From IMG/VR virus record IMGVR_UViG_2671180429_000018: a stretch of DNA of 5,531 nucleotides; one strand, written 5' to 3'. This DNA comes from a virus. Its lineage: Duplodnaviria; Heunggongvirae; Uroviricota; Caudoviricetes. The position numbers were made by a program. Positions 3,001 through 5,531 of this stretch are shown here, one piece after another; within the stretch, counting starts at the first letter, position 1; every line of letters starts with the position of its first letter.

Positions 3001-5531
3001 ATGGCGTTCAATGACCTTGAATATCAAGCAGTAAAAAAAGAAGTTCACCAATTCATTGAAAGCATAAGGCCGCCTGAACATATCCGCAATGAACTGGATA
3101 TTGTTTATAGCATCAATGACCAAACGATAGATATCGGCGAACAGCGCCCCGTGTGGCAGGGCAATCCAGGTGAAACAAACATCCTGCCATCAGCAAGAAT
3201 CAAGTACATACGTTCTCTGGATAGATGGAAAATCTATTGGATGCGGAAGGATATGAAATGGCATCAGTACAGTACTGAACTTTCGCTGACTGATGCGCTT
3301 GAGCTTGTGCGTGCTAACCCGGATTGCTGCTTCTTCGGATGAGTGAAGAGACGTTTGGATGATGGATGGTCGCAGAGATGCGGCCTGATTCTAAAATAGG
3401 ATATAAAAAATGAGAATACTAGGTGTTAGAGCGGCGCCCAAAGTTACATCTTTTGTTGTATATTGCACTAATGAGTCTGCACTCAAATGTGTTGATGTTA
3501 TTAAAATACCTTCGACCTTAGACACACCAGAAAAATTAAAGTATGTGAGAAATAACATCCTCGACATTCTTAATTTATATAATGTTGAATTAGCTGCCAT
3601 ACGCGTTACTGAATCAAACTCTGATAATCTTAGCATTGACCGCCTTTATATAGAAGCTGTTATTCAAGAAGCATTTTCAAGCAGTGATGTAAGAAAATAT
3701 TACACTATTAGAAAATCTGGCATGAAATCATCATTGAACCTAACAGAGATCGAGTATAAAGAAATATTGAAGTCACACCGCAATATAAATGGAATCGATA
3801 ATTCTGGTTTTACAACTGAAACAAATGAAGCTGTTTTGGCTGCACTATCTGCGGAGGTAAGGGGATGCTAACTCCATACAAAAGAGCTGATGTAGAATTC
3901 GAATGGATTAGTGATCTAGAAGAACAGGGTTGTTTTTCAAAAGTATATCTGGCTCATGACAGACACCTAGCTCATGACTTGGTGATTAAAGAAATAGAAA
4001 AAAAAGAAAACACTAACCACGACGACTACTTTAATGAAGCAAGGCTTCTCTATAAACATGCACATCCAAATATTGTGCAAGTTCAGTATGCTGCTCAATG
4101 TGAGAGCAATATCTATATAGCCATGCCATTTTATCATAATGGTTCGCTAAACCAATTAATGAAAAAAAATAATCTTACAAGCAGGGAGATAATACGGTAT
4201 TCCATTCAATTCTTAAGTGGACTTTATCATATACACTCAAAAGGTCTTATGCATTTTGATATAAAACCTAATAACATTATGATATCAAACAGAAATGAGG
4301 CCATGCTATCTGACTTTGGATTATCTCAGTTAGTCAATGAGGAATCGAGAGCTGCGCCTGAGTTTGGATATCATTTTCATGTGCCACCGGAATATTTTTC
4401 TTTATCAACAAATGATTATAATTTCACATATGACATATATCAGGCAGGATTAACCATATATAGAATGTGTGTTGGACATGATAATTTTGAAAGAGAAAGA
4501 TCTGCATTTAGCACGATTGAACAACTCAGAGAGTCGATAATTAATGGCTGCTATCCATTAAAAGAGTATCCTCCCCATATACATAAAAAATTAATAACAA
4601 TAGTGAACAAATGCATTCATGTAGATCCAAATGAAAGATATCAATCCGTACTAGATGTACTAAACGATCTCTCAGCTATAAGTGATGGCGTTCTTGACTG
4701 GCGTCTACAGATGACGAAACCAACTAACGGCACATGCGAATGGCAAAAAAAGTCTGGGGACGCTATACTGTCTATAGTTTTTGACGCAGAAAATTCGTCT
4801 ACTACTGGTTTTCGTTTATACGATGATGGGCGGAAAAGGCGTGCTACGAACTTAACAATATCCTCAGGATGTACCCCTACAAAACTGTATAGGTTATTAA
4901 AGGATAACTGATCATGAAAAAGCGCGAGGAAGTAAGCAAGCTGCCTCGCAGACGTGATGCAGCATTAGCGGTTCCCTACAAAAAAGATGAGTTCATAAGC
5001 CCTTCTGATGACAAAAAATTTTCAAAGGCGAAAAGTTTTACATCTACATCTCTAAAAGATAAATACTTTAAAATCTAGCCCGGCCTCAGCGCCGGGTTTT
5101 CTTTGCCTCACGTTCGCCCACCTAAAAAACATAACCAATTGTATTTATTGATGTAACTCGCTAAACCATGCAGTTATGATCCCTGCCGCATAACCTTCAT
5201 CAGCCACATTTTCAAAAATAAATTTCCTTATATATCAGAATCATACTTCGTAGAGTTAATAAATCACCAAAATTCGTACCAATAGTTCTTGATAATGTCG
5301 AACTATTGGTTCATTATTATCGTCGTCAGCAGGACGCATTACTCACCAGGGCGGTGAATATACAACGATTCGTGAACCGCCCCGGTTTTCCTGGAGAGTG
5401 TTTTATCTGTGAACTCAGGCTGCCAGATCATCGTTTCTGATGGAAGCATAATAAGCTTTTTCTGCTTCTGCCGGAGGAATATGGCCCAGCCTTTCCAGCA
5501 ATCGTCGATTGTTATACCAGTCCACCCACGT

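Follow-up and report, generated by a model that had tools for sequence, protein, structure and literature searches.

A small basic protein gene linked to the Stk kinase of 933W-type prophages: probable regulatory component of an anti-phage cassette

The 5,531-nucleotide stretch of DNA analysed here in full (the window; IMG/VR virus record IMGVR_UViG_2671180429_000018) represents the immunity region of a Shiga-toxin prophage of the 933W type, and shares 99.4% identity with phage 933W across positions 1-5372. Its plus strand carries three closely packed genes, encoding a RuvC-fold protein (L0083), the Hanks-type protein kinase Stk, and a 54-residue basic protein that corresponds to L0081 of 933W, where it is annotated as a 'hypothetical protein'. 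This last, small open reading frame (ORF) is our subject. Comparison of homologous loci indicates that it is a gene in its own right, constantly linked to the kinase, and that its product probably regulates a kinase-based anti-phage suicide system. The features on which the argument turns are as follows.

3410-3871, plus strand: L0083, RuvC-fold protein of 153 aa, whose gene opens the cassette and overlaps the stk start by 7 nt
3865-4911, plus strand: stk, Hanks-type protein kinase of 348 aa (Pfam Pkinase, E 2e-46; named stk in the 933W annotation)
4900-4904, plus strand: Shine-Dalgarno sequence AAGGA, within the last stk codons and 9 nt before the ATG
4914-5078, plus strand: gene for the small basic protein of the L0081 family, 54 codons and a stop, closing the cassette (L0081 in 933W; PHROG 4063)
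4944-4979, plus strand: N-terminal motif P-R-R-R-D-A-A-L-A-V-P-Y (codons 11-22), the most conserved part of the family, with near-invariant columns
5037-5075, plus strand: C-terminal motif F-T-S-T-S-L-K-D-K-Y-F-K-I (codons 42-54), conserved in the core family only
5077-5104, plus strand: intrinsic terminator at the end of the pRM operon, a hairpin (5077-5098) with a U-rich tail (tM in 933W, tRM in the phi24B annotation)

The small gene, its coding signature and its protein family

The kinase ORF ends at 4911 and, after a gap of 2 nt (4912-4913), the small ORF reads from ATG to TAG to give MKKREEVSKLPRRRDAALAVPYKKDEFISPSDDKKFSKAKSFTSTSLKDKYFKI. A first-pass annotation of this DNA had placed a 54-codon frame with a plausible Shine-Dalgarno sequence at this spot, and both are borne out: the frame is intact, and AAGGA, AAGGG or AAGGAG occupies the equivalent position in the core group of homologues. 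The product (6.3 kDa; 12 Lys, 4 Arg and 9 Ser or Thr; isoelectric point (pI) 10.0; grand average of hydropathy -1.08) aligns end to end with the PHROG 4063 profile (E 2.5e-39; residues 1-54 on positions 1-54), which is listed as of 'unknown function'. This was its sole match, with no relative found in Pfam, NCBIfam, PADLOC-DB v2 or by PDB sequence search. The open frame alone is weak evidence for a gene, as 54 stop-free codons arise with a p of ~0.03 at local composition and the window contains 42 ORFs of at least 30 aa; it is comparative evidence, rather than length, that raises this ORF above chance.

Relatives of 50-54 aa were returned by a word-indexed search from Serratia, Salmonella and Pragia at 54-96% identity, with one gene call of 65 aa that includes an upstream extension. 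An exhaustive profile search, together with a second profile-based search, widened the family to 45 clusters across the Enterobacterales, all labelled 'hypothetical', with identity to the window protein as low as ~20%. These homologues (50-59 aa) occur in Escherichia, Klebsiella, Enterobacter, Raoultella, Serratia, Pantoea, Salmonella, Pragia, Proteus, Providencia, Morganella, Xenorhabdus and Atlantibacter. A scan of one-genome-per-species contigs with peptide alignment yielded 67 pattern matches, none of which passed tblastn.

The first-pass annotation had allowed that the segment might be non-coding spacer, and had named codon-level selection, and frameshifts or stops among homologues, as the observations that would decide the matter. 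In codon alignments, the only indels are of +3, -6 and -12 nt, all multiples of three, and the conserved blocks survive many synonymous changes, the Pragia gene, for example, encoding R, D, A, L, Y and F within PRRRDAA and SLKDKYFKL with other codons. Among 14 diverse cassettes, the mean proportion of synonymous differences (pS) is 0.61 and that of non-synonymous differences (pN) 0.31, and the pairwise ratio of non-synonymous to synonymous substitution rates (dN/dS) is 0.15-0.4, compared with 0.08-0.2 for the kinase gene in the same pairs. Extra states at codon positions 1, 2 and 3 number 70, 55 and 97, the third position being the most variable, and the annotated frame is free of stops, while 64 and 91 interrupt the other two forward frames and 106 the reverse strand. 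Frameshifted copies are rare (P0003, P0005 and P0007, all from single read-archive assemblies, and L125) and do not overturn this pattern, from which we judge that the small ORF is almost certainly protein-coding and subject to purifying selection.

The tM hairpin (8 pairs, 6 of them G-C; -15.5 kcal/mol), which is followed by TTTTCTTTG, begins within the TAG stop codon at 5076-5078. That the ORF ends at the terminator, as had been remarked from this sequence, is correct for the window, where the stop lies inside the hairpin, and for the E. coli-type group at large, but does not extend to distant cassettes, in which the hairpin lies 10-30 nt further downstream. For the same reason, we reject a link between the end of translation and the terminator as the conserved function of the region. 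A hairpin and U tract nevertheless follow the small ORF in ~30 of 33 distinct cassette or stand-alone copies and, because the stem sequences are unrelated, the small gene is consistently the last of its transcription unit.

These observations bear on whether the region could instead be non-coding, as a spacer, a terminator leader, or a small RNA conserved at the RNA level. Such a region would be compatible with the shortness of the ORF, whose stop-free run could be due to chance as noted above, and with the overlap between its stop codon and the terminator stem. It would not, however, be expected to vary chiefly at third positions, to accept only in-frame indels, to keep dN/dS below 0.4 or to hold a single frame open; further, protein-level homologues persist after nucleotide similarity has vanished, Rfam 15 covariance models over 4700-5531 gave no match at E up to 1, and the terminator does not adjoin the stop in distant cassettes. 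We consider the non-coding explanation refuted by these comparative data, and its residual probability negligible.

Transcription of the gene is consistent with its position. Between 2900 and the tM hairpin at 5077, the plus strand contains no terminator-like site, so the pRM transcript should reach tM. The small ORF of phage phi24B is identical to that of the window, and RNA sequencing after norfloxacin induction of phi24B recorded a 3.6-fold change for this ORF (P 0.14, not significant), alongside changes of 1.2 for cI, 1.8 for stk, 1.2 for res (L0083) and 0.65 for 13c (L0084), and a 43-fold rise for the next gene past the terminator, on the pL side (PMC4651098, Table S4). As its fold change groups with those of cI, stk, res and 13c, the small ORF belongs at the RNA level with the lysogenic operon.

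Within the protein, conservation is concentrated in the N-terminal motif. The family consensus P-R-R-R-D-A-A-x-A-x-P-Y, which generalises to [KR]-R-[DE]-x-x-x-A-x-[PS]-Y, lies at residues 11-22 of the window protein, whose length also falls within the 53-59 aa of the family; in an alignment of 37 sequences every member has R13 and A19, and at least 90% have P11 and Y22. Members of the core family share in addition a C-terminus of the form F-x-S-x-S-L-K-D-K-Y-F-K, which is replaced in the 59-aa and Xenorhabdus subfamilies, while the middle of the protein is variable and accommodates the indels. Of the compositional features that had first drawn attention to the peptide, PRRR and the C-terminal KDKYFK are indeed conserved, but SFTSTS is semi-conserved and the mid-protein residues are variable. 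An AlphaFold2 model built on the 37-sequence alignment (predicted local distance difference test (pLDDT) 75; predicted template modelling score 0.25) comprises three short helices (residues 13-18, 24-27 and 30-44) without globular packing, and the motif block has the highest pLDDT, at 84. The lack of a globule is as expected of a peptide that might fold on a partner, and the confinement of conservation to residues 11-22, beside a variable middle, suggests a linear-motif peptide that docks on such a partner. No antitoxin-type DNA-binding domain (helix-turn-helix, ribbon-helix-helix, AbrB or similar) was found by Pfam, NCBIfam or PDB sequence searches or as a globular fold in the model, and the protein has no hydrophobic segment.

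A resemblance between the motif and a kinase activation segment (SRAAPEFGY compared with RRDAALAVPY) was also considered, and is unsupported, as the Tyr matches by position Thr201 of protein kinase A (PKA) and not an activation-loop phosphosite.

Linkage to the Stk kinase, and copies outside the cassette

Loci were gathered in two independent ways, via the small protein and via the kinase. Wherever a full-length kinase relative was found (39-100% identity), a small ORF was the next gene on the same strand (116/116 loci), and an L0083-like gene of 152 aa lay upstream of the kinase wherever the contig extended that far. The small ORFs in these loci encode 53-64 aa (one frameshifted copy encodes 84 aa, and one ORF starts with GTG), and begin between -7 and +9 nt from the kinase stop, the gap being exactly 2 nt in the core group, as it is in the window. 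They represent 30 distinct proteins, all of them basic (pI 9.6-10.8), and the most distant are undetectable by sequence search, yet match the others in size and have [KR]-R-[DE]...A-x-P-[YK] near the N-terminus. The settings of the cassette are unrelated to one another, and include lambdoid and Rac-like immunity regions after cI, a primase-bearing island, and positions next to dinI genes, integrase or tail genes. The layout of RuvC-fold protein, Stk kinase and small protein is thus invariant in all kinase relatives retrieved. Gene neighbourhood therefore gives strong support to the tie between ORF and kinase that had been drawn from the window sequence, and the small protein is very probably a functional partner within the cassette. 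The existence of L0081 has been known since the 933W genome was deposited, whereas its invariant linkage, with L0083, to the kinase is shown here. In the literature covered, the primary Stk papers aside, Stk is described as a kinase alone, and neither L0081 nor L0083 is placed in its system; PADLOC-DB v2 has no profile for either protein, and phage records annotate both genes merely as hypothetical or 'resolvase'.

What is known of the partners frames the possible roles of the small protein. Stk excludes phage HK97 by abortive infection; it is nearly inactive in uninfected lysogens, and is activated upon HK97 infection (PMC3681748; PMC6356687). Its nearest defence profiles in PADLOC are mad6 and PD-T4-6 (the latter at E 1e-37), and its catalytic loop, HFDIKPNN, has Asn where PKA has Glu170. 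L0083 has a confident RuvC fold, and its residue 7 is an Arg that is invariant across 35 family members. Judged by the RuvC signature G-I-D-P-G, and not by computed alignment, this position appears to be that of the first catalytic Asp of RuvC. Because Arg appears to replace the catalytic Asp, we infer that L0083 is a junction-binding sensor or scaffold, not a canonical nuclease.

Given such a neighbour, the small protein could be a nucleic-acid-binding accessory of L0083, which would aid recognition of branched or replicating phage DNA, a recognition that would then switch the kinase on. The consistently high pI of the family (9.6-10.8), a Lys plus Arg content of ~24-30% of residues, and the constant company of a confidently RuvC-fold protein inside cassettes would all suit that role. 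Set against this, searches of Pfam, NCBIfam, PHROG and PDB sequences revealed no recognisable DNA- or RNA-binding domain, conservation is focused in one short motif and not across the basic residues, and stand-alone copies occur without L0083, such that we regard an accessory of this kind as improbable.

These stand-alone copies are of two kinds, both rare (a few contigs each) and both closely related to cassette copies. The first is found in Salmonella prophages, which lack both the kinase and L0083: in L013 (1277-1441) the small ORF and its terminator directly follow cI, and in L006 to L008 the small ORF follows cI and an unrelated 112-aa gene. Homology to the window in these prophages extends from 0-5 nt before the ATG to just past the terminator. 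In L006 and L007 (6001-6153), the ORF has its own GGAGG Shine-Dalgarno sequence 7 nt before the ATG and a second terminator-like hairpin upstream, and in L006 the terminator after the ORF is degraded. When the Salmonella stand-alone copies are compared with one another, pN/pS in the C-terminal half is ~0.9.

The second kind is found in kinase-less metagenome phage contigs (L131, 4001-4225; L137, 1696-1920; also L132, L133 and L138), in which the 40-residue core of the protein stands behind a different N-terminus. In L131, a GTG start with an AGAGAGG Shine-Dalgarno sequence would give ~56 aa, compared with the 74 aa called. The phage copy sits right after the lysis cassette and spanin genes, and immediately precedes genes of the crAss001_48 (Pfam PF21825, labelled 'Sequestin' in the contig annotation) and Acb2/Tad1-hairpin families, both of which exceed Pfam cut-offs; L131 carries a SocA/Panacea gene as well, and the same arrangement recurs with two different lysis cassettes. 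By gene content, this neighbourhood looks like an anti-defence island. Nucleotide similarity between a phage copy of this kind and the cassette copy in L134 is confined to 119 nt within the ORF, and over the shared core pS is 0.40 and pN 0.09 (pN/pS 0.22). Between two of the phage copies, the motif half is identical and the C-terminal half is changed, with pN/pS at ~0.84 on very few changes. Occurrence in kinase-less phages, together with the absence of a hydrophobic segment, also makes it unlikely that the protein is a toxic effector in its own right, as the first-pass annotation had suggested it might be.

Stand-alone copies raise the further prospect that the gene is an independent moron, carried at the 3' edge of immunity-region cargo by the terminator and functionally untied to the kinase. 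The Salmonella copies that follow cI, or cI and the 112-aa gene, without a kinase, the GGAGG of L006 and L007, a unit of homology to the window that spans just the ORF start to shortly past the terminator, and the kinase-less copies in phage late regions would each be explained. Such independence is nevertheless hard to reconcile with the 116 of 116 kinase loci that keep the small ORF at fixed spacing, despite saturated synonymous sites and in unrelated settings, and the stand-alone copies are rare and near to cassette copies; we consider it very improbable.

Candidate roles of the small protein

In 933W the cassette of L0083, Stk and small protein is transcribed from pRM with cI, ending at tM, and we propose that the small protein is translated by coupling to the kinase, given the 2-nt gap and a Shine-Dalgarno sequence within stk. 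The product may be a short linear-motif peptide that binds the kinase, or a complex of the kinase with the RuvC-like protein, and thereby regulates Stk. Most likely it would do so as a negative regulator or antidote, or as a pseudosubstrate-type inhibitor, keeping Stk silent in the uninfected lysogen; kinase-less phages may then have captured the core of the small protein as a counter-defence. A negative regulator is favoured because the kinase must stay silent in the uninfected lysogen, because the motif contains Arg-Arg-x-Ala, and because kinase-less phages retain the core among anti-defence genes, as if its expression disarms the system. Taken as a whole, a coding, operon-terminal, kinase-regulating peptide, most likely an inhibitor or antidote, is the account that we tentatively prefer, while stopping short of calling it probable. 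The specific role of inhibitor, judged by itself, is possible and should be held still more loosely. A bolder version, in which the small protein is the antidote of an undescribed tripartite abortive-infection system (RuvC-fold sensor, Hanks-type kinase effector and ~54-aa inhibitory peptide), and its 40-residue core has been repeatedly stolen by phages and set among anti-defence genes, beside Acb2/Tad1-like ones, to disarm Stk-type kinases of the infected cell, is doubtful.

Several considerations weigh against an antidote. Antitoxins are usually made in excess, whereas the tight coupling of the small ORF downstream of the kinase suggests roughly stoichiometric synthesis. The association of phage copies with anti-defence genes is guilt by association, and the stand-alone copies may be decaying remnants and not domesticated genes, given a C-terminal pN/pS of ~0.84 in phages and ~0.9 in Salmonella. 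Together, the coupling and the possibly relaxed selection on stand-alone copies count mildly against the antidote.

The small protein could instead be an Stk substrate, or a positive effector or adaptor, phosphorylated for example on Tyr22 or in its Ser-rich C-terminus, in which case the phosphorylated form would pass on a signal or bring the kinase to its targets, and the phage copies would be decoy substrates. This possibility draws on the same co-occurrence evidence as the inhibitor, and translational coupling suits a stoichiometric partner. Y22 is present in at least 90% of the 37 aligned sequences, S44 and S46 are conserved in the core group, and Stk of 933W has been described as a tyrosine kinase (PMC3681748), as also in the title of Tyler and Friedman (2004). 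Tyr22 is not kept, however, by the Xenorhabdus subfamily, which has ASASNCK, or by several distant cassettes, which have APK or SPK, and the Ser/Thr stretch is not conserved beyond the core family; we therefore rate a substrate or effector as unlikely, and continue to prefer a negative regulator.

Comparison with known systems helps to place the cassette. The abortive-infection kinase Stk of 933W (Tyler and Friedman, 2004; Friedman et al., 2011) is encoded at the very same locus, with the ORF 2 nt past stk in the pRM operon. PD-T4-6 and the staphylococcal Stk2, as catalogued in PADLOC and DefenseFinder, resemble it in using a Hanks-type kinase domain as anti-phage effector; they are filed as single-gene systems, whereas the 933W cassette consists of three genes travelling together. 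Conditional on the linkage described above, the Stk system would be a kinase-based abortive infection system with two obligate accessory genes, of which the small protein would be a regulatory component.

The nearest analogies for the small protein lie elsewhere. Type II antidotes, including that of the tripartite kinase system HipBST, likewise set a small, probably unstructured protein beside a potentially lethal kinase, and the role of holding the kinase off is one that L0081 may share. Phages carry antidote mimics. The 933W cassette differs, however, in that the toxin gene comes first with tight coupling, and in that the small protein has no DNA-binding domain; further, the kinase of HipBST is of the HipA type, and Stk of the Hanks type. 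The pseudosubstrate inhibitor PKI of PKA invites comparison because L0081 is a short basic peptide with Arg-Arg-x-Ala (R13-R14-D15-A16), a pattern that in a pseudosubstrate would put Ala where the acceptor residue belongs. The likeness is no more than that and implies no homology, and the catalytic loop of Stk has Asn in place of Glu170 of PKA. Finally, rexA and rexB of lambda, and hex of phage 434, are lysogenically expressed genes that likewise lie after cI and ahead of the immunity-region terminator. The product of hex, an active small peptide, modulates cleavage of the repressor and confers exclusion of P22 (PMC3564112). RexB and Hex have no sequence similarity to L0081, which is linked to a kinase cassette instead.

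Few kinase-based abortive-infection systems have been studied by experiment; Stk of 933W is among them, and the constancy of its RuvC-fold and small basic companions changes the experimental unit to three genes taken together. How Stk is silenced, by what means HK97 activates it and at what cost to the cell become questions for the three genes jointly, and the motif, at 12 residues, is short enough to be tested directly. The stand-alone copies, in phages that lack the kinase, point to a candidate counter-defence against such systems. As pathogenic E. coli carry the cassette in their Shiga-toxin prophages, it may also influence which phages can superinfect these strains.

The remainder of the operon and its surroundings

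Two further genes of the pRM operon lie upstream of the cassette, and the minus strand of the window carries O (with ori iterons), cII and cro.

2233-2940, plus strand: cI repressor, whose gene heads the pRM transcript extending to tM
3001-3342, plus strand: L0084, a DUF3024 protein (Pfam DUF3024, E 1e-30; PADLOC PDC-S43, E 4e-41)

PDC-S43 is a candidate single-gene defence system in PADLOC. L0084 accompanies the cassette in 933W-type and Proteus loci, and most other cassette loci are without it; as its presence is occasional, L0084 is best seen as separate cargo and not a constant part of the cassette, and the pRM operon holds two separate cargo units. A 15-nt exact direct repeat, TGAAGAGACGTTTGG, brackets L0084 at 2973-2987 and 3344-3358, where shuffled sequences lead to an expectation of zero matches. 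The repeat looks like either the joint of an inserted cargo gene, or sequence shared just upstream of ribosome-binding sites.

The stk gene contains a run of eight A residues (4000-4007). When the IMG/VR copies L027, L038, L044 and L017 were compared with the window, several were found to differ by one base in or next to this run, or to have a 1-nt insertion elsewhere, so that the kinase is frameshifted and the small ORF remains intact. Such frameshifts could stem either from sequencing errors at homopolymers, or from repeated inactivation of a gene that is costly to carry.

Downstream of the cassette, the OL/nutL region lies beyond tM on the plus strand. A segment that comprises the small ORF stop codon, the terminator and ~55 nt beyond (5076-5151) has matches that overlap annotated rexB in two E. 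coli genomes (93% identity), and similar matches, 90-97% identical, are found at this place in numerous other E. coli genomes and prophages. Because these matches begin at the stop codon of the small ORF, this codon appears to mark the boundary between variable cargo and conserved lambdoid backbone. Identity to 933W is lost from 5373, where the window passes into the end of an IS3-family insertion sequence (5373-5531); this stretch starts TGAACCGCCCCGG and encodes the C-terminus of the transposase on the minus strand. Most E. coli genomes have many copies of the element. Its insertion lies inside what the 933W annotation gives as nutL (window 5335-5401), upstream of N, and leftward antitermination in this prophage may be impaired as a result.

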